Source of the DNA: a virus
Reading direction: 5' to 3' (one strand)
IMG/VR virus record: IMGVR_UViG_3300037153_000324
Coordinates: 1 to 64,000 of that record
Length of the DNA stretch: 64,000 nt
In this document: one piece after another, positions 1,551 through 47,941 of the stretch
Numbering within the stretch: position 1 is the stretch's first letter
How the letters are laid out: the number at the start of each line of letters is the position of its first letter
Program-made: the position numbers and the translations under genes
Notes under the pieces: generated by a model
What the model was told of the DNA's origin: nothing
The model's database searches: none
Seen by the model: only the letters and a program-made list of their open reading frames with translations

Positions 1551-1798
1551 AAATGTCCGAGACATTGACGCTCGACCAGTGCGAACAGGTCTACATGGAC
1601 GGTTGCGCCGATGAAATATCCGGCGATGTGGAAGCGCCTATGGGACACTTCTACCGTGTCGGTCGCTTCATCGTCACGACCGACTCGCAGGGATTTCACA
1701 GCCTGAGCGAGTATGCCGATGAGGAGACTGCCCACTACGAATTCGAGCAGGCCGCAGTCGCGTACGCCGAGTGGGATAGCTGGAATGACGACGCTTGA
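1547..1798 (+). CDS. acidic hypothetical protein
   Basis: AAGGAAGG RBS, ATGA overlap with the previous gene. Confidence 0.7.
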   Translation: MKMSETLTLDQCEQVYMDGCADEISGDVEAPMGHFYRVGRFIVTTDSQGFHSLSEYADEETAHYEFEQAAVAYAEWDSWNDDA

Positions 1799-1814
1799 CA
1801 GCGTGCGCTATGAT
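1793..1814 (+). promoter_or_regulatory. putative promoter GCTTGACA-N8-TATGAT
   Basis: TTGACA 1795-1800, TATGAT 1809-1814. Confidence 0.6.
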
Positions 1815-1820
1815 GGGTGC

Positions 1821-1884
1821 GTTCCTTCTCTGTCGGAGGGATGAGCACAAGAGGGGCCGGGATTCTTCCCGGCCCTTTCTTTTT
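1821..1884 (+). ncRNA. candidate antisense sRNA (~65 nt), 5' seed UUCCUUCUCUGUCGGA
   Basis: bounded by a promoter and an intrinsic terminator, no ORF, 5' end complementary to the repeated TCCGACAGAGA leader box. Confidence 0.5.
1854..1884 (+). terminator. intrinsic terminator
   Basis: GGGCCGGGA-TTCT-TCCCGGCCC followed by TTTCTTTTT. Confidence 0.85.
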
Positions 1885-2575: not shown

Positions 2576-2606
2576 AAAAAAAAGCCCCGGATTTCTCCGG
2601 GGCTTC
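2576..2606 (-). terminator. intrinsic terminator of the leftward operon
   Basis: AAGCCCCGGA-loop-TCCGGGGCTT with a poly-U tail on the minus strand. Confidence 0.85.
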
Positions 2607-2616
2607 AATGATCTAG

Positions 2617-2811
2617 CTAGGCATCCAAGATGTTGTAATCGAGATACAAATTACCCTCGATATCATCTCGAATCTCTTTCTGTGCATTCTCGATCAATTC
2701 GAGAACCGACCACGGCTGAAATTCATCCTGGTCTAATTCCCATTTACGTTCGAGAATTGCATCGGCGTAAGCGGCGCAAACATCCTCCGCCGCGATGCGA
2801 CGATTACGCAT
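2617..2811 (-). CDS. acidic hypothetical protein (5' end uncertain)
   Basis: 64-aa ORF; the RBS box at 2892-2909 opens a different 26-aa frame. Confidence 0.5.
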   Translation of the reverse strand: MRNRRIAAEDVCAAYADAILERKWELDQDEFQPWSVLELIENAQKEIRDDIEGNLYLDYNILDA

Positions 2812-2913
2812 GGAAACGCACTGGAAATAGCAGGATAAGCTCGACTATCCCAAGCAGAATCCACGGCCGTCGAATCAGATACATTTCATTTCTCCTGTTC
2901 TCTGTCGGAATGT

Positions 2914-4065
2914 AATTGCACGGTTTCACAGAGAGGCGAAATTCCACTCTCTGTCGGAGTTTTGTTTCCGTTATGCCTTGCCCATAAGCTCACGCAATGC
3001 GGCTCTGAGCATTTCGTTCATTTCTTCCTCAGGAAATGATGTTGCCATTCTCTCCACTGTAATTTCCAGCTTTGAGTTTTCGGCGTTGTAATTCACTCCC
3101 CAAGGAATCGAGTTATCTCCGCGTCCCATTCCCATCGTAATATCCCATTTTCGGCTTTCTCCGTGAAGGATATATGCCATCAATGCGAACGTCCGATATG
3201 ACGCAGGAGATAGCATCGGAGAAAACGAAGTGAAATCCACTACTTCGTTTTCCTTTTTCACTCGAATGTACGTGTTTTGCAGGCCGTTATCTTTTGTCTG
3301 CCTATACGTTCCGCGTAGTCGATAGTGAAATACAATTTCACTGTCAACGCCAGCGGATTCGAGAGAGTATGCGACCTTGCAAAGCCAGACATTGAATGCA
3401 TTGACAATTTCAGCGCTAGTTGTTGAAGCGAAACTAACGAGAATGTCCAATGAAATACCTGGAATTGCATCTCGCTTTGTGAATTCCGAATACGGTTTGT
3501 CATCGCCCGATAGCATCATATCGAAGTGAAATTCGTCGCCATCCTCATCGAAACGGAATTTCCGTTTTTCACGAATAGGCGGCACGAATTCCTCTAGTCC
3601 ATGAATTTCGGCCGATTGGAAACCGTTAGCTAGCCAATCCCGCAATTGCGCGAGTGTATAGCCATGCCAATGACTGTTCATATTTAGCAGGAATTGATTG
3701 ATTGCCCTAACGCTAGCTGCTCTGAAATTCGGAGCAACGTTATTTGCGAGGACAGTCGAAACAAACTCCTTTAGTTCCGACCAGTCAATTGAAAATTCCG
3801 GCTCTTTTGTTGCCGGAACGATCATGCCGAATTCACCCGCAACGGGTATGTAATTCGGCTTTGGCTCATTCGGAATTGCCGGGCTTTGGGAATCGAAACA
3901 ATGCTCGCAAAGAGCACCACGAATTCCTTTCTGCCATCCGACCTTGCTACCCGCCAGATATGGCGTTTGGCAAGATCGGCATTTTCCGGCATATCGCGAT
4001 GTAATTAGCTTCACAGTGGCTTCCTTTCTTTGTGAAATTTAGCCCCTCTGTGAAACCGTGCAATT
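2914..4065. repeat. 34-bp inverted repeat pair enclosing the VWA-like gene
   Basis: arms 2914-2947 and 4032-4065, 31/34 complementary. Confidence 0.9.
2971..4014 (-). CDS. Zn-finger plus VWA-like partner of a MoxR/CobS-type AAA+ ATPase
   Basis: N-terminal CxxC...CxxC; C-terminal alpha/beta region (...LESAGVDSEIV); adjacent to the AAA gene; GAAAGGAAG RBS. Confidence 0.6.
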   Translation of the reverse strand: MKLITSRYAGKCRSCQTPYLAGSKVGWQKGIRGALCEHCFDSQSPAIPNEPKPNYIPVAGEFGMIVPATKEPEFSIDWSELKEFVSTVLANNVAPNFRAASVRAINQFLLNMNSHWHGYTLAQLRDWLANGFQSAEIHGLEEFVPPIREKRKFRFDEDGDEFHFDMMLSGDDKPYSEFTKRDAIPGISLDILVSFASTTSAEIVNAFNVWLCKVAYSLESAGVDSEIVFHYRLRGTYRQTKDNGLQNTYIRVKKENEVVDFTSFSPMLSPASYRTFALMAYILHGESRKWDITMGMGRGDNSIPWGVNYNAENSKLEITVERMATSFPEEEMNEMLRAALRELMGKA

Positions 4066-4128
4066 TCTTTTTTTCTGTAAAGCCACTCAATTGAATCCCG
4101 CCGTTTTCTGCCGGGAGGGAATTACCTT

Positions 4129-5532
4129 TTAGTTACCGTTGAGCGACCGCATATTCTCCTCGAAAACGCGAGTGAAATAATCACGCTCCAAGCGCGTATC
4201 CAACTCGATTCGAACACGACCCATATTCCAACGGTCGAGTGTTGCAGCGTCCAATTTCTCGCGGCCCGTATACTGACGATTTGCTCCGAGTCCGAGTGTA
4301 TTGGCGCAGGCAGTCGCAATGAAATTGCGACTCCGATTTACGAATGCGCCTTTCACCGAATTGTAGAGCTTATCGCCCGCAAGAGCGTTGTTTAGGACGA
4401 GCAACATTCCCGCGTCAGCGGAGTCCATTTCCTCGAAATTGAACACGCCGCCTTGCCCGTAGATAGTGTCGAATTCGGCAGGGATAAAACCGGACAAAGT
4501 GCCGGTTCTATATGCATCGACAATTTCATCCTTCCATTCTGTCAACTCGTCCGAGTCAGACGGAATGGAATTCAGAATTCCAGCGAGCAATTGCGACTGT
4601 GCCATACCCGAGCCAGTGTAACGGCCGAGCAAGTCACCTCTTGTAATTCCGGGTGACATTGCCGTTTCACCGTAGGGCATTTCGAGGTAATCGGCTAGCT
4701 GAGAAAGCAGGGTCGATTTACCCGTACCTTTTGGCCCGACAAGGAAGATCGGCTGACGCGCTTCTGCGAGCAAAAGCACGTAACCGAACATTGCATGAAA
4801 TTCCTTGCCGTTTTCCGGCTTCGTGATGTTGCGCTTTTTCATTACGTCCGATGAAAACGTCACAAAATCGAACTTTGAAATTCCGATTTCATTACGTGCC
4901 TCATCCGGCCAATGCATTGTCATTGCGTCGAGCAATGCATTGGCAGGAATTCCGCGCGGAATCAATTTCGATCCCGCTTCCAACGGGCGCATTCCAATCG
5001 AGTCAATCGACTGAGAAAGCCGATCCCGATTTTCACAGAGAGTACGGGCGCGAATTACACCCGAATAAAACATCTCCCATTCACTGCGCAATTTCACTTT
5101 GCCGCTTGCCTGAGGCGTGGCAGGCTCATCCTCCGGCTCATCCTCGTCCGTAAGCTCGTCCGAGGGTTCGTCCGTAGGCTCATCCTCATCCTCATCCTCG
5201 TCCGGCTCATCCTCGTCCGGCTCATCCGATGAAATTGGGGACGAAATAGGTTCCGAAATCGACCTATCCTGATCTTCGGAGTGTTGCGTCGAAATTGTCG
5301 GATCAAGAATACGAAAGACCCGATGAATTTCATGATGCAGCATTTCATACTGCTCACTCATTGGCTTTGGGATTCGACGGCCATTTACATTAGCCTTGAA
5401 TACCAAAGTCTGAGCAGTAACGAGCGGCTTTAGTGCATCGTAAACCTGCCGCCTTGTCATGCCGCGATTTGCAAGTTCCGCGATCATATGACGATTGGAA
5501 CCCTTACGCCACGTTTTTCTGTTTATAGCCAC
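4129..5532 (-). CDS. MoxR/CbbQ/CobS-like AAA+ ATPase with acidic linker
   Basis: Walker A GPKGTGKS, Walker B FNFEEMD, ACANT sensor, LDAATLDRW Arg finger; GAAAGG RBS before GTG 5532. Confidence 0.85.
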   Translation of the reverse strand: MAINRKTWRKGSNRHMIAELANRGMTRRQVYDALKPLVTAQTLVFKANVNGRRIPKPMSEQYEMLHHEIHRVFRILDPTISTQHSEDQDRSISEPISSPISSDEPDEDEPDEDEDEDEPTDEPSDELTDEDEPEDEPATPQASGKVKLRSEWEMFYSGVIRARTLCENRDRLSQSIDSIGMRPLEAGSKLIPRGIPANALLDAMTMHWPDEARNEIGISKFDFVTFSSDVMKKRNITKPENGKEFHAMFGYVLLLAEARQPIFLVGPKGTGKSTLLSQLADYLEMPYGETAMSPGITRGDLLGRYTGSGMAQSQLLAGILNSIPSDSDELTEWKDEIVDAYRTGTLSGFIPAEFDTIYGQGGVFNFEEMDSADAGMLLVLNNALAGDKLYNSVKGAFVNRSRNFIATACANTLGLGANRQYTGREKLDAATLDRWNMGRVRIELDTRLERDYFTRVFEENMRSLNGN

Positions 5533-5568
5533 TTGAATTACCTTTCTGTTTTCGTTCTCTGTCGGATA

Positions 5569-5790
5569 GGACGGCCTCAATAAAGCGGTCGAATGAAATT
5601 CGAAGATTACTGCTTACTTAGCGGTCGGACGAACCTTACCCTTACTCGGAATTCCGAGCTTAGCAGACGTGCGATTTGCGTACAGCCTATTCGATGCGAC
5701 AGCCCTATAGCGCTGCCATTGCCTGTCGGATTTGATGAGCATAATTTCATTCTCACTTTCTTCCATCCGACCGCTTTATTGAGGCCATCC
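5569..5790. repeat. 27-bp nested inverted repeat pair enclosing a 42-aa ORF
   Basis: arms 5569-5595 and 5764-5790; both mismatches are G-U on the minus strand. Confidence 0.9.
5614..5742 (-). CDS. small basic protein MLIKSDRQWQRYRAVASNRLYANRTSAKLGIPSKGKVRPTAK
   Basis: translated by hand; GAAAGTGAGAATGAAA leader shared with ORF 6329..6424. Confidence 0.6.
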   Translation of the reverse strand: MLIKSDRQWQRYRAVASNRLYANRTSAKLGIPSKGKVRPTAK

Positions 5791-5842
5791 GTTTGTGATT
5801 CCCGGCAGAAAAACAGTGGGATTCAAGTGAATGGCTTTACAG

Positions 5843-6257
5843 TCTCAGACTGCCCGTTCAAACACTCTAAAGCGGATGAAATTGCTAGGTGTTTAGCAGT
5901 AGTACCTTCCGCAAATTACATCCTCACCGAATTCCCCAACATACTTGAAAAGTTTGCCGGAAAAGAAAGTCTCAGTGACGATCAAATCCCAACCTCGAAA
6001 TTCAAGATTCATTGGGATAGCTTCGGTGTCGTTCAGGTCGTAAATCTGACCCTTATAGCGGATGAAATCTCTGCCATCCTCACCGGCATCAATTTTCTGC
6101 CAGTCTAGATAGTCGAATTCCTCACGCTCTTTCGCCGTTAGTTCGTCCGCTCGAATTACATTCCGAGGGACATTGTTTGTGATAACGGTAATGCCCATTT
6201 TGTTTCCTCTCTGTCGGATGAAATCCGCTAAAGAGTGTTTGAATGGACAGTCTGAGA
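5843..6257. repeat. 35-bp inverted repeat pair enclosing a 101-aa gene
   Basis: arms 5843-5877 and 6223-6257. Confidence 0.9.
5893..6198 (-). CDS. conserved phage hypothetical protein
   Basis: TCCGACAGAGAGGAA RBS box before ATG 6198 (MGITVITNN...). Confidence 0.75.
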   Translation of the reverse strand: MGITVITNNVPRNVIRADELTAKEREEFDYLDWQKIDAGEDGRDFIRYKGQIYDLNDTEAIPMNLEFRGWDLIVTETFFSGKLFKYVGEFGEDVICGRYYC

Positions 6258-6259
6258 AA

Positions 6260-6481
6260 CCCTGCAATTGCACTTGATTGAGCGGCTAACAATTTCAGTT
6301 TATGCGAGCGAAAACCGAGTGAGGATTACTAGGACATTATCCACCGATAGAAGCGGACGTAAGCGTAAACGGCTAGTGCAAGGTAAAGCGTTTCGACTGC
6401 TAGCCAATAAGCGGTCATTTTCATTCTCACTTTCTGTCGGAGAGTGAAATTGCAGCCGCTCGATCAAGTGCAATTACAGGG
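6260..6481. repeat. 28-bp (extendable) inverted repeat pair enclosing a 31-aa ORF
   Basis: arms 6260-6287 and 6454-6481. Confidence 0.9.
6329..6424 (-). CDS. small single-TM peptide MKMTAYWLAVETLYLALAVYAYVRFYRWIMS
   Basis: translated by hand; TCCGACAGAAAGTGAG leader. Confidence 0.6.
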   Translation of the reverse strand: MKMTAYWLAVETLYLALAVYAYVRFYRWIMS

Positions 6482-6995
6482 ACGCTACTTGCCCGTAATA
6501 GTATCCGAGGATTCTCGCGACTTATTTGGATTTTCATTGCGGCCCTGACTCGAATTTACCGGGGTAATGTCGGGTAAGCGTAACCGTTGCTTTCACGGTC
6601 AGAGTTTCCGACTAGCCGGGTAAATTACATTCCGGGAGTTATGCGCAGATTTTCCGCCGAATTTCAGGACTGAGGGAATCCGTAGACCCGTTTCCTAACT
6701 GAAATTACGCGAGAATAACCCTCGTGGACTTGCCACGGGATTAGCGTCAAATTTTCATCGGCCGACCACAGAAATCGCAGGTAAATCTATCGCTTTTCGG
6801 AACTACGTCCTACGTGCGTCATTTTGATCCGTTTATGCGTCAATTCGGTGAAATTGTAGGGAAGAGACTCGCTCGATTCCGGCCCGGTATAAACACGGGG
6901 AATTTCACTTTTTATCGGCTACTAGATCGCAATATCGCACGCATCCGAGCGCGTAATCAGATTGCGCCGCTTTAGCGTGAAAAACCGATGTAATT
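6481..6995 (-). ncRNA. two candidate multi-stem structured RNA domains (6481-6748, 6750-6995)
   Basis: nested complementary pairs GACGCTA/TAGCGTC, ATTCTCGCG/CGCGAGAAT, AATTTACC/GGTAAATT, GTGAAATT/AATTTCAC; no ORF; strand assumed from the operon. Confidence 0.5.
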
Positions 6996-8099
6996 GTCAA
7001 AAATCAATGAGGCACGGCAAACCGTAAATTCCGCGCGGCTGGCATAGTCACAGCGGGGCAAAATCAAGAGGGAATGAGACGACGCTAATTCCAGCGTGAA
7101 AGCGGGAGAAAAATCCTCGCGCACACTCGCACGCCGAAACGCTTGTCCGTCACAAGAGCAGGCTTGCGCCTGTCTCGCCCGTGCCTCGATTTTCAAAGAG
7201 CGTAAAATCCGCTTCGCGGATTTTATGGGCAGTCGCAAGGGTTCACAAGGCTTGCCCGGACAGAAAACTCGCAATTTGCGGGAATTTCATTTCAGGGAAG
7301 GTCGATTTTCGGCGTTTTCGCAGAATTGGGCGATTTCTACGGAGCGTTACCGAAATCGGCAACGAAATTTGAGCGTTGTCGGCTTCGGCGACGCTTCGAT
7401 GAAATTGTGCTGTTTTGCAGGGATTTTGCCCCTCTGAAAAAACGAAATTTCACATTTCGACCCCACTAGGTCTAGTGCGGCAGGAATGACGCGACGAATT
7501 CGACCGAATCGACCTGACGCCGTTTCTCGACAATTTCATTGGAACCGGGCTTTTTCCGGTCGGAACGGTTCCAGAATCCCGCCAGGCCGTTTCTCCACAA
7601 TTTCATTCTCCGACCTTACGCGCCCGACCCTAATTCGCCCAAAACGGCGGATGAGGATTCTCGCGCAATTACATTGCAGGGACTCCTCATTGCCCTGTAG
7701 GCAAACACTGAAATTCGGGAACAATGACGCTCTGCCATTCCAACGCCGCTCACCCTAGGACAGTTCTCCGACCCCACGAATTTGCAGTGTTGCCCGTTCT
7801 GAGAATTACATTCGGCTATTCCAGAATCCCTCTCGCGAGAGGCAACAAAATTGCGGTTATTTGAAGCAGGGTGAATTCCCTGTAATCATGCGGTGTTGCC
7901 AAGAATTTCAACAGAATCATTTTCGGCGGTTTAGGAAAATTATACAGTAGACAACTACTCTCTACCTGCCTGCTTTACGATGCCAATTTCATAGAAACGT
8001 CCAAAAACTCCGCTCATACCCCGGCCCAGAGCATGAATTACAAAGCCATTTTTCCACCCATTTCTAGACCTCTTGAATAACGGTTCAATCGACCTAGGG

Positions 8100-8640
8100 A
8101 TCACCAATTACATCTCCATTTTCCAATTTCAAAAGAATAATCGAAAACCGCCCATTTGCAGGGGTTTTTCATTTGATACCGAACGTCTGTTTGATATCAA
8201 AAATCTATGTAATTCTACCGGATTCTGATGAAATTTGTATGGTTTACAACGGTGAAATTGGCGGGGCCAATATAAACACTAAAGCCCCTTTTTTTTACAT
8301 CTAAAATGTAAAAGAACAACCCCGTTTTTACCCTGTTTTTTTTACATTTTCCCATATTATACTTGCTATAACGAAATTAGTTTTGACCATTTTTTTTGAA
8401 TAATTCCAATTTCACGATTTGAGCGATTCTCAGGCATTTTTCGGGCTATTTTTCGAACACCTTTTTCAGAATTACTTTATAGCACAAATAATATGGGTAA
8501 AATGAAAATAAAAATGCCAGAAAAATAGCAAAAACGGCCCCAATAACCCACAAAATGTAAAACCTGAGAATGTAAAAAACGCAAAAACGACAAACGGACA
8601 AAAAATTTGCAAAAAACGGGATAATTGACAGAATCCACAG
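8100..8640. other. AT-rich A/T-tract region (candidate ori or packaging/terminus region)
   Basis: T-tracts 8285-8470 switching to A-tracts 8485-8620 in a ~1.7 kb non-coding gap between divergent arms. Confidence 0.45.
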
Positions 8641-8954
8641 GAGCCTCTCTGCCAGAACCTCGTTTCGGGCAAGGGAGAACTACCCCCAAGCCTTTTCAAG
8701 CCCTTAGAAACGCTCTCAGAGGCCCGCTCACAGCCTCACTTGACCTTCCAATCGGCCACAGATAGGCTCTTGTCGAAGGCGGGTATCACCCTTCCCCCTT
8801 CAGTCGCATGTTCAGGGCCGTTTGTCTCCCAGTGGCAACCGCAGGCCACTCGTCTCAAACGGCCCTACTCCTTGCCCTCATCCTCTCTCCTCTCTTCTCT
8901 CAGAATTACACCGGCAGAAATTACACCGACGAACCGACAGGGAGGAAAAATTAC

Positions 8955-9806: not shown

Positions 9807-9976
9807 GATAGACAAACCGTACTTGACGAAATTTTGGTTCGGTAATTCATGGCACTATGTTCACACGAAGCACTGCTACCGGCTCAATCATCGTTTTTTC
9901 GGCAGATGGGTCGGCTGCGTTTCGTACCGACGTTTGAATTCCGAACTGATCGGGTAGACCTGCTAGGCTCGGTCGA

Positions 9977-10375: not shown

Positions 10376-10533
10376 CCGCAAAGAAGGTCAAGAAATACAC
10401 TGATCCGTACGCTTGCGTTTTCTGCGGTCACAGTGTAGATATGCACATTCGCCGTCCAACTCCCTCCTGCCGTGTAATCAAACTGGGTACCGGAGAAAAA
10501 TGTAAATGTCAGGGGTTCAACAGAAAACCGTAA
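10372..10533 (+). CDS. small Zn-finger protein (CVFCGH..H..C..CKCQGF)
   Basis: translated by hand, ATGA overlap. Confidence 0.6.
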   Translation: MTAKKVKKYTDPYACVFCGHSVDMHIRRPTPSCRVIKLGTGEKCKCQGFNRKP

Positions 10534-47629: not shown

Positions 47630-47941
47630 GTGGCTCACGATGCTCCGCACGGACGACAGAAGTCATCGAAATTAGTCAAGAAGCCGCATGTAACCGAGCA
47701 GACGAAATTTGACCTTTGGTTGTCCCAATGCATGAATGACGGGACGCCTGTAATTGTCACTTTTTCGCTCGATCTACAACCGATTTTGGGCGTTAGGACA
47801 ACTCCTTGTTGGGTGCTCGTTGTTGACCGCTATTTTGTCCAATTGGAGCTTATCGATCTGTTCGAAAAATTCGGTGCCGGTGGTAATATCTTCTGGTTTC
47901 CGAAAGACGTTCTCAGGGCGGTTTCTCTTGCAATTTCATAG
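47630..47941 (+). CDS. putative Hfq/Sm-like RNA-binding protein
   Basis: FDLWLSQCMNDGTPVIVTF / VVDRYFVQL / FWFPKDVLRAV resemble the Hfq helix-Sm1-Sm2 pattern by eye. Confidence 0.45.
   Translation: MAHDAPHGRQKSSKLVKKPHVTEQTKFDLWLSQCMNDGTPVIVTFSLDLQPILGVRTTPCWVLVVDRYFVQLELIDLFEKFGAGGNIFWFPKDVLRAVSLAIS

Follow-up and report, generated by a model that had tools for sequence, protein, structure and literature searches.

Organization of the leftward operon

We analyzed a leftward (minus-strand) operon in the viral record IMGVR_UViG_3300037153_000324, the window being the whole stretch of 64,000 nucleotides examined. Its genes and signals are listed in the direction of transcription.

6482..8360, minus strand: upstream stretch of ~1.9 kb with no box-bearing gene, presumably an untranslated leader
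6433..6441, minus strand: start-associated box UCCGACAGA, between a 5' arm and a Shine-Dalgarno sequence; other copies start at 6218, 5566, 2958 and 2909
6329..6424, minus strand: ORF for a 31-aa hydrophobic peptide, inside helix E, with box and Shine-Dalgarno before its start
5893..6198, minus strand: 101-aa gene, inside helix D
5614..5742, minus strand: 42-aa ORF, inside helix C
4129..5538, minus strand: AAA_5 (MoxR/CobS-like) ATPase gene (PF07728, E 1.1e-9; phrog_249, E 2.2e-25)
2971..4014, minus strand: DUF7192-family protein gene, inside helix A (PF23822, E 5.9e-4, below cut-off)
2617..2884, minus strand: final two cistrons, of 26 aa and 64 aa; neither has its own helix in this phage
2581..2606, minus strand: intrinsic terminator at the operon end, an 11-bp stem with a T run behind it

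The AAA_5 ATPase is the conserved anchor of the operon, with 261 homologues (the best 120 of the 261 were listed). The gene in helix A had been labeled "VWA-like" in the original prediction, a label we drop: DUF7192 was the sole match of its protein, and the nearest Atlas cluster is also DUF7192 (0.97). The 101-aa gene was without a Pfam or PHROG match.

The box UCCGACAGA together with a Shine-Dalgarno sequence stands upstream of at least eight genes in this phage and is lineage-specific among relatives. It also precedes promoter-proximal genes on both strands. Further upstream, a ~54-nt element occurs in inverted orientation at 8325-8378 and 8470-8523, one copy forming the start of the upstream stretch; the two copies may be a divergent promoter pair, and no operon promoter was identified with confidence. 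Since no convincing intrinsic terminator was found within the operon, and there is no promoter space between the inverted-repeat arms described below, all arms would be co-transcribed.

Five inverted-repeat pairs enclose the genes

Along the operon lie five pairs of inverted repeats, here called helices A to E.

6445..6481, minus strand: helix E, 5' arm, partner of 6260-6297
6260..6297, minus strand: helix E, 3' arm; 38 nt, 89-93%, E 1.7e-4; -60.4 kcal/mol for the coding-strand duplex, which is complete in the global MFE
6223..6257, minus strand: helix D, 5' arm, beginning 2 nt past the end of helix E; 89%
5843..5877, minus strand: helix D, 3' arm, with a gap of 0 to the helix B 5' arm
5800..5842, minus strand: helix B, 5' arm; 43 nt, 88%, E 1.2e-5; -68.6 kcal/mol
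5761..5790, minus strand: helix C, 5' arm, nested within B; 30 bp, 90-93%
5569..5598, minus strand: helix C, 3' arm, aligned by MAFFT to the columns of the relatives' ATPase 5' arm
4075..4116, minus strand: helix B, 3' arm, partner of 5800-5842; outer helix around the 42-aa ORF module and the ATPase
4032..4065, minus strand: helix A, 5' arm, beginning 9 nt past the end of helix B; 34 nt, 91%, E 1.2e-5; -55.7 kcal/mol
2914..2947, minus strand: helix A, 3' arm, including a box-complementary stretch

The original prediction had described five such pairs, separated successively by 9, 0 and 2 nt, with each surrounding a gene. We recovered all five at the coordinates claimed, and both the gaps and the enclosed genes (the DUF7192 protein, the AAA_5 ATPase, the 42-aa ORF within B, the 101-aa gene and the 31-aa peptide) were correct. 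When the complete 74,373-bp genome was searched against itself, A to E were the only inverted repeats at E <= 0.002, the next best having E = 0.5. The mismatches in the five pairs, read on the coding strand, comprised 9 G-U, 3 A-C and 4 other, with 2 gaps, so that a coding-strand G-U bias earlier put at 8 versus 3 holds on recounting (9 G-U versus 3 A-C). In helix C, every position pairs on the coding strand when G-U is included, and the coding-strand duplex was the more stable in 5/5 helices of this phage. The global MFE of the 3,951-nt transcript contained all five helices, and by inspection the adjoining arms of neighboring helices showed no mutual pairing.

Further closing stems had been proposed at 6481-6748 and 6750-6995. 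These did not survive: the MFE gave only short stems (~8 bp), not above chance, and the 523-nt stretch spanning them was unremarkable against shuffles (coding strand, z = -1.27; opposite strand, z = -0.84).

Two details of individual arms were also noted. The box copy at 2948-2958 could serve as an alternative partner of the helix A 3' arm, in a local hairpin, and the segment 5569-5598 pairs upstream in this phage, unlike the aligned ATPase 5' arm of relatives.

The helices recur in related phages

Among 40 representative loci of related soil phages, 34 carried helices, 76 in total, around the same operon of small genes, AAA_5 ATPase and DUF7192 protein. Where both ATPase flanks were present, a bracketing pair was found at E <= 0.01 in 26/27 loci; the 27th has a shorter helix, and the detection threshold of 20 nt limits the visibility of shorter stems. 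Two other complete genomes contained four pairs (66.7 kb) and five pairs (70.2 kb), all confined to this operon.

Each module runs in the order 5' arm, 5-20 nt, box and Shine-Dalgarno, ORF, stop, short spacer, 3' arm and then the next 5' arm. Helices are 23-57 bp long (median 34), their arms lie 128-1748 nt apart and so span whole cistrons, and successive helices in the relatives' set abut within ~4 nt. The start and stop codons fall ~5-40 nt from the helix base, and the ORF usually makes up 85-99% of the loop. Inspection of 13 loci showed the main enclosed ORF to be co-directional with the ATPase, the exception being one ORF-less helix. Different small genes and nested modules fill equivalent slots across phages.

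Consecutive helices overlap at several junctions, where 7-20 nt belong both to a 3' arm and to the 5' arm that follows, so adjacent helices cannot always be complete simultaneously. Some junctions show a 14-nt segment that neighboring helices have in common. A few relatives seem to have an enclosed ORF that reaches into the 3' arm; ribosomes would open such helices.

The arms covary and pair best as coding-strand RNA

The 5' arms of different phages are only distantly alike (median identity 52%), and mean duplex energy was -58.6 kcal/mol for cognate arms versus -18.1 kcal/mol for non-cognate arms. To quantify covariation, we used an alignment of the ATPase helix from 19 modules, in which double changes were present in 29/29 pairs (109 cells). 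Its cells were paired in 87.9% of cases, compared to 31-50% for slid partners and 65.7 ± 1.5% for shuffles, with 0/500 shuffles reaching the observed value; deriving the structure from the same aligned sequences inflates the percentage paired, but not the double-change count. Compensatory swaps are also directly visible across four related phages. Compensatory arm changes in homologues, the absence of which had been named as a refutation of the prediction, are thus abundant. Judged from these alignments, selection for pairing maintains the helices across a large phage family.

We then considered the strand on which pairing acts. In the relatives' helices, G-U exceeded A-C on the coding strand by 73 to 35 (p = 1.6e-4; 4.4e-4 versus a composition-corrected null), and the sense-strand duplex was the more stable in 60/77 helices (p = 4.5e-7). 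Arm composition is nearly unskewed (G/C 1.03, T/A 1.05); strand-biased mutation could supply part of the G-U excess. Pairing is optimized for coding-strand RNA, and the helices are confined to this operon. The proposal that the arms are RNA helices on the leftward transcript is thus borne out by covariation, the coding-strand G-U bias, the global fold of all five and the lack of internal terminators. The pairs are mutually unrelated, as also foreseen, and not copies of one transposon end.

A proposed model: processing stalks for mRNA cistrons

By analogy with rRNA, we propose that these structures are processing stalks that surround mRNA cistrons and that host RNase III cuts them, releasing end-paired single-gene messages, a reading to which we give a probability of about 0.6. 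One long leftward RNA would begin at some point upstream of 6481 and end at the terminator (2581). Along this RNA, the sequence just 5' of each translation start would pair with the sequence just 3' of the same cistron's stop. Most likely, folding turns this long transcript into a series of extended double-stranded stems, which would abut, with one cistron looped from each; in this phage, one loop would hold the nested small-gene module together with the ATPase.

Host RNase III, which cleaves the duplexes flanking 16S and 23S rRNA (PMC8708148), probably cuts each stem in the same way, because near-perfect double-stranded RNA of at least two helical turns is its natural substrate. Cleavage would yield single-cistron mRNAs whose 5' and 3' ends are still base-paired together; such paired ends may shield the message from end-dependent RNases, and the stability and yield of neighboring cistrons would be uncoupled. 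A central mismatch, present in about half of the helices, may set the cleavage site or limit cutting to one strand. The central fifth of the helices holds 33/89 disruptive mismatches versus 10/73 G-U (Fisher p = 0.0011), and a disruptive non-pair lies within the central 30% in 40/76 helices. The target site of RNase III must be flanked by ~11 bp in both directions, and mismatches in the site itself lead to single-strand cleavage (PMC3867540).

Alternatively, the helices may work as RNA uncut, which we consider credible but rather unlikely. Their role could be to stop 3' exonucleases and scanning that depends on the 5' end, to keep the folding of a cistron separate from that of its neighbors, or to place the stop codon beside its own start and so allow re-initiation on that cistron. 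The covariation and strand evidence is the same for this reading as for processing, and it is also favored by the closeness of start and stop codons to the helix base, by loops filled largely with ORF and by the fact that the phage does not encode RNase III; the central mismatches could equally weaken RNase III recognition. However, RNase III of almost any bacterium would be expected to accept stems that are 23-57 bp long and have few defects as substrates (PMC3867540), and far shorter stems already halt exonucleases, so that their length looks excessive for a pure roadblock.

A further version, in which the messages are pseudo-circular, with ends held by the remaining half-stem or even ligated and terminating ribosomes returned to the same start, strikes us as distinctly doubtful; it would be a phage counterpart of the eukaryotic closed-loop mRNA, tuned per gene. 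No RNase III, RtcB (PF01139) or dsRBD gene was found in the phage genome, and the earlier suggestion of circularized mRNA found no support, RtcB being the sole RNA-ligase family searched.

It is very unlikely that the repeats act on DNA, either as cassette borders for the inversion, excision or exchange of single genes or as scars of insertion into hairpins. The varied contents of equivalent slots, the 14-nt segments common to neighboring helices at some junctions and the phage-encoded RecA and PD-(D/E)XK nuclease would suit such a role. Yet the pairs have no common recombination-site sequence, no inverted orientation was seen among the 13 loci inspected, no recombinase family appeared among 29 gene products scanned against Pfam, and arms that diverge between phages cannot guide exchange between them. 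Nor does DNA pairing predict the strand-specific G-U excess and sense-strand energy advantage. Inversion or excision of the enclosed segments, the outcome that would have pointed to recombination, was absent from the assembled DNA of four soil runs, which gave identical contigs without joints, contigs being blind to rare variants.

Two known types of DNA cassette were considered and rejected. Invertible segments of the Hin/Gin/Cin type and shufflons do not match, there being no common recognition sequence, a single orientation (13 loci) and jointless contigs from the four runs. Integron cassettes with attC were discarded because the arms flank both sides of the gene and no integrase family was present among the 29 scanned gene products; attC is one local imperfect palindrome at the cassette 3' end and comes with an integrase.

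That the arms are paired operator half-sites, through which a DNA- or RNA-binding phage protein loops out each gene, is hardly credible: some arms do have a weak common core (ATTGAG and its complement), but the commonest hexamer is in just 12/78 5' arms, each pair is unique, and free covariation at 29/29 aligned positions is incompatible with sequence-specific protein recognition.

Significance and comparison with known systems

In the literature searched, we found no description of a series of stems that each enclose a single cistron and are conserved by covariation across a phage family. If the proposed cleavage is true, the stems would represent a general phage route from one transcript to individually stabilized, end-paired messages, and synthetic operons could draw on them as naturally occurring, mutually orthogonal cistron insulators. 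A G-U bias in abutting inverted repeats that fit their genes would then also be a sequence-only signature by which uncultured viruses could be searched for post-transcriptional processing of operons.

Textbooks describe long-range processing stems for rRNA and local RNase III hairpins for T7 mRNA, where the signals lie between genes. The predicted likeness to rRNA processing stalks is evident in the geometry, with long-range flanking arms of 23-57 bp. As in the rRNA stems cut by RNase III, the flanks of 0.1-1.7 kb of RNA pair long-range over at least two helical turns, several stems stand in series per transcript, and conservation is by covariation rather than sequence (PMC8708148; PMC10250234). 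Unlike rRNA stems, those of the phage enclose cistrons that code for proteins and carry ribosome-binding sites, as many as five stems abut at 0-9 nt without spacer tRNAs, and cleavage here is predicted. Moreover, rRNA operons combine an enclosed stable RNA with boxA/boxB/boxC antitermination signals, whereas the RNAs enclosed in the phage operon are ORFs and boxA-like signals are not consistently present: just 3/15 loci had a boxA-like word on the transcript strand ahead of the first helix, and window matches were not above chance.

The T7 early mRNA signals (R0.3 to R1.3) resemble the present stems in that double-stranded elements divide a polycistronic phage transcript. Their internal defects direct single-strand cleavage and leave stabilizing paired 3' ends (PMC3867540). 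The central mismatches enriched in the phage helices may be a parallel to these T7 defects. In contrast to T7, the strands of each stem here lie on opposite sides of a gene, and the product's own 5' and 3' ends would pair.

Pairing between the ends of one mRNA is also known from the fold-back of hok mRNA and from icaR, where it hides the ribosome-binding site and so represses just one gene. The ribosome-binding site here, unlike that of icaR, is not part of the stem, and the arrangement recurs from cistron to cistron along an operon. In Staphylococcus aureus icaR mRNA, 5'-UTR/3'-UTR pairing controls translation and makes an RNase III site (PMC3868564).

Finally, Cluster K mycobacteriophages carry SAS, a conserved and lineage-specific 13-bp motif located where translation of some of the non-structural genes begins, and ESAS, local inverted repeats just upstream of SAS (17 bp, with a 4-13 bp spacer) that follow one consensus per genome (PMC3203893). 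By analogy, the box UCCGACAGA behaves like SAS, its sequence being different. Unlike ESAS, the phage pairs follow no consensus: each is unique, extends over 23-57 bp and encloses a whole gene.

Five inverted-repeat pairs enclose genes of the leftward operon

The window covers bases 1-64000 of a complete virus record of 74,373 bp, which has a direct terminal repeat of 127 bp; the same phage DNA is present in several soil metagenome runs. The virus is a tailed phage, with genes for its particle and for lysis (large terminase, portal, capsid, CHAP endolysin) as well as genes for replication and recombination (DNA polymerase III alpha, DnaB, primase, RecA). Its Shine-Dalgarno sequences, intrinsic terminator, and peptidoglycan hydrolase suggest that the host is a bacterium. 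No nucleotide match to this phage was found in the phage database, and a genome-collection search returned only distant ATPase relatives and thus no clue to the host. The window contained no Rfam family at gathering score and no tRNA, and an Hfq-like ORF (47630-47941) had no Pfam match at E <= 0.001. The hexamer GWAATT is overrepresented ~7-fold genome-wide, in coding and noncoding DNA alike: there are 275 copies on the plus and 256 on the minus strand, where equal base use would give roughly 36 per strand.

The original prediction held that five inverted-repeat pairs bracket genes of the leftward operon. Three independent repeat searches recovered all five at the predicted coordinates, with E values of 1e-5 to 2e-3 in a whole-genome self-BLAST, where no other inverted repeat fell below 0.5. 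In transcript order, the operon reads as follows:

6260-6297/6445-6481, minus (coding) strand: helix E, the first, enclosing a 31-aa hydrophobic peptide
5843-5877/6223-6257, minus strand: helix D, 2 nt past helix E, enclosing a 101-aa gene
4075-4116/5800-5842, minus strand: helix B, 0 nt past helix D, enclosing nested helix C and an AAA_5 ATPase
5569-5598/5761-5790, minus strand: helix C, nested in helix B, with a 42-aa ORF
2914-2947/4032-4065, minus strand: helix A, 9 nt past helix B, enclosing a DUF7192 protein
2606-2581, minus strand: terminator at the operon end, preceded by two small cistrons without bracketing arms

Additional closing stems had been proposed upstream of 6481, but these are short, and the stretch folds no better than its shuffles.

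The layout is shared by related phages

A protein search yielded 261 ATPase homologues, the best 120 of them at 38-52% identity and many on 66-76 kb contigs. We gathered related loci from viral and metagenome collections via the ATPase alignment and ran self-BLAST on each locus. A bracketing repeat surrounded the ATPase in 26 of the 27 loci having both ATPase flanks, and the 27th retained a shorter, interrupted helix. Once near-identical loci had been removed, 34 of the 40 representative loci carried a total of 76 helices, and the other six were truncated contigs or had distant ATPases. More distant ATPase relatives, matching in the AAA core alone at no more than about 35% identity, had no helices. 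In two further complete genomes, the operon helices were again the sole significant inverted repeats.

The modules have a common order. A 5' arm (named in transcript orientation) is followed after 5-20 nt by a start-associated box, which is fused to the Shine-Dalgarno sequence, and then by the ORF with its stop codon; a short spacer leads to the 3' arm, from which the next 5' arm is mostly -4 to +4 nt away. The enclosed sequence is usually 85-99% ORF; certain modules contain a second ORF or another module nested within, and in a few relatives the ORF seems to extend into the 3' arm. Inspection of 13 loci placed the main enclosed ORF on the ATPase strand throughout, except for one helix without an ORF. 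At 7 of the family's 41 junctions, neighboring helices share 7-20 nt and would thus compete for the same bases. In one related locus (L012), a single 14-nt segment can pair upstream or downstream (8870-8883, 9813-9826, 10520-10533), so that two neighboring helices compete. In the MAFFT alignment, the 3' arm of nested helix C falls in the columns occupied by the ATPase 5' arm of other phages, which suggests that new small-gene modules may arise by arm duplication and re-pairing.

The ATPase itself has an acidic Asp/Glu/Pro-rich repeat in its N-terminal region (window 5123-5233), encoded by a DNA repeat of 12-15 nt periodicity; its length is highly variable among homologues, and its DNA draws unrelated metagenome contigs in read mapping. 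Another relative, L071, carries a superfamily-2 helicase (ResIII, Helicase_C) split by an intein that contains an HNH domain (4629-6842; genome 67629-69842), with a separate HNH-AP2 endonuclease gene just upstream.

Arm pairing is conserved while arm sequence is not

Arm sequence is not conserved, the identity of 5' arms between phages having a median of 52%. We compared arms of the same helix (cognate) with arms of different helices, and the mean duplex energy was -58.6 kcal/mol for cognate and -18.1 kcal/mol for non-cognate arms. Four related phages displayed compensatory swaps, e.g., T-A to A-T, A-T to G-C, and C-G to A-T. In addition, 22 ATPase modules were aligned with MAFFT (alignment A2), and a consensus helix was built from each sequence's own duplex; 19 rows were counted, leaving out this phage, L010, and L057, in which a nested inner arm had aligned to the others' 5' arm. 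The expectation of compensatory changes in homologues was borne out, with double changes at all 29 pairs (109 cells). Standard pairs occupied 87.9% of cells, compared with 31-50% when partners were slid by 1-3 columns and 65.7% after column shuffling (0 of 500 shuffles reached the observed value); deriving the structure from the same sequences favors this percentage but leaves the double-change count unaffected. A core motif common to all arms was not supported, the best hexamer occurring in only 12 of 78 5' arms.

Helix geometry and a probable role in processing

Left uncut, gene-enclosing helices could block decay, insulate folding, or recycle ribosomes, and this is the main rival to a role in processing. 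The stems span 23-57 bp (median 34) with few defects. Disruptive mismatches cluster toward the middle: 33 of 89 fall in the central fifth, compared with 10 of 73 for G-U positions (Fisher p = 0.0011), which served as a control subject to the same alignment-trimming bias, and the central mismatches leave 12-19 bp on either side. Duplexes of this kind are cut by bacterial RNase III, which requires ~11 bp to either side of its target, and mismatches at the target site restrict it to one strand, so that stabilizing paired ends can remain (PMC3867540); the duplexes flanking 16S and 23S rRNA are cut by this enzyme (PMC8708148). We consider that the helices most likely work as RNase III-type processing stalks. 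Each stem would be cut by host RNase III and each cistron freed as an RNA whose 5' and 3' ends remain base-paired; these paired ends would protect the cistron termini and uncouple neighboring cistrons. Since no phage gene for RNase III was found in the genome, nor for a dsRBD protein or RtcB, any cleavage would be carried out by the host. The further idea that released mRNAs are circularized gained no support in a phage without RtcB.

Evidence favors pairing at the RNA level

Inverted arms might also be the borders of DNA cassettes, and a range of observations speaks against this. On the coding strand, the non-Watson-Crick positions comprised 73 G-U, 35 A-C, 35 others, and 19 gaps, an excess of G-U over A-C (p = 1.6e-4) of which mutation bias explains little because arm composition is almost unskewed. 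Of 77 helices, 60 were more stable as the coding-strand duplex (p = 4.5e-7), as were all five of this phage. In its global minimum-free-energy fold, the predicted 3,951-nt transcript forms all five helices, and this fold is 170 kcal/mol better than that of the opposite strand. At the DNA level, contigs from four soil runs (one identical contig per run, in which rare rearrangements would escape) contained no rearrangement joints, the inspected relatives included no orientation variants, and the pairs shared no recombination-site consensus. We therefore regard DNA cassettes as very unlikely. The data favor pairing of RNA rather than DNA, and gene-enclosing arm pairing is a real, strongly conserved, RNA-level feature.

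Promoters, leader elements, and a candidate small RNA

Between the leftward operon and the rightward genes for lysis and structure, a 54-nt element is present in two inverted copies (window 8325-8378 and 8470-8523, 72% complementary). Both copies have a TATAAT-like hexamer, and they may form a divergent promoter pair. At six promoter-like sites, a perfect TTGACA and a TAnnnT hexamer are only 7-8 nt apart (window 495, 1094, and 1795 on the plus strand and 2506 on the minus strand; genome 70618 and 74153 on the plus strand); in related phages, the spacing before homologous box-bearing genes is the usual 17 nt.

At window 1793-1884 (plus strand), a stretch of ~65 nt without an ORF lies between one such promoter (TTGACA and TATGAT, 8 nt apart) and the strong terminator at 1851-1878. 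The 5' part of this stretch is complementary to the box and Shine-Dalgarno sequence of operon genes; against the leader of the 101-aa gene, 16 of 17 positions pair by hand count. This segment is a plausible candidate for a phage sRNA masking ribosome-binding sites. No equivalent was found in relatives, where antisense matches belonged to opposite-strand genes. Box/anti-box covariation in relatives did not hold up either: the antisense box matches considered as covarying partners were the same box before opposite-strand genes with their own promoters.

A boxA-like word (GCTCTTTGAAAA) lies at window 7190-7202 (minus strand), in the leader ~700 nt upstream of the first helix. Only 3 of 15 loci have such a word on the transcript strand ahead of the first helix, and matches in the window are below chance expectation. 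The related locus L049 has, 240 nt upstream of its first helix (507-523), a closer match to the Gram-positive rRNA boxA; most relatives lack it.

Comparison with known systems

Full-text literature searches turned up no account of phage mRNAs with gene-enclosing stems in series. A parallel to the box is found in the start-associated sequences of Cluster K mycobacteriophages, the extended form of which has local consensus repeats (PMC3203893). The stems share their geometry with rRNA leader-trailer helices; however, the RNAs enclosed here are mRNAs, and boxA-like signals are inconsistent. They share their logic with the intercistronic RNase III signals of T7, which, unlike these stems, are local hairpins.
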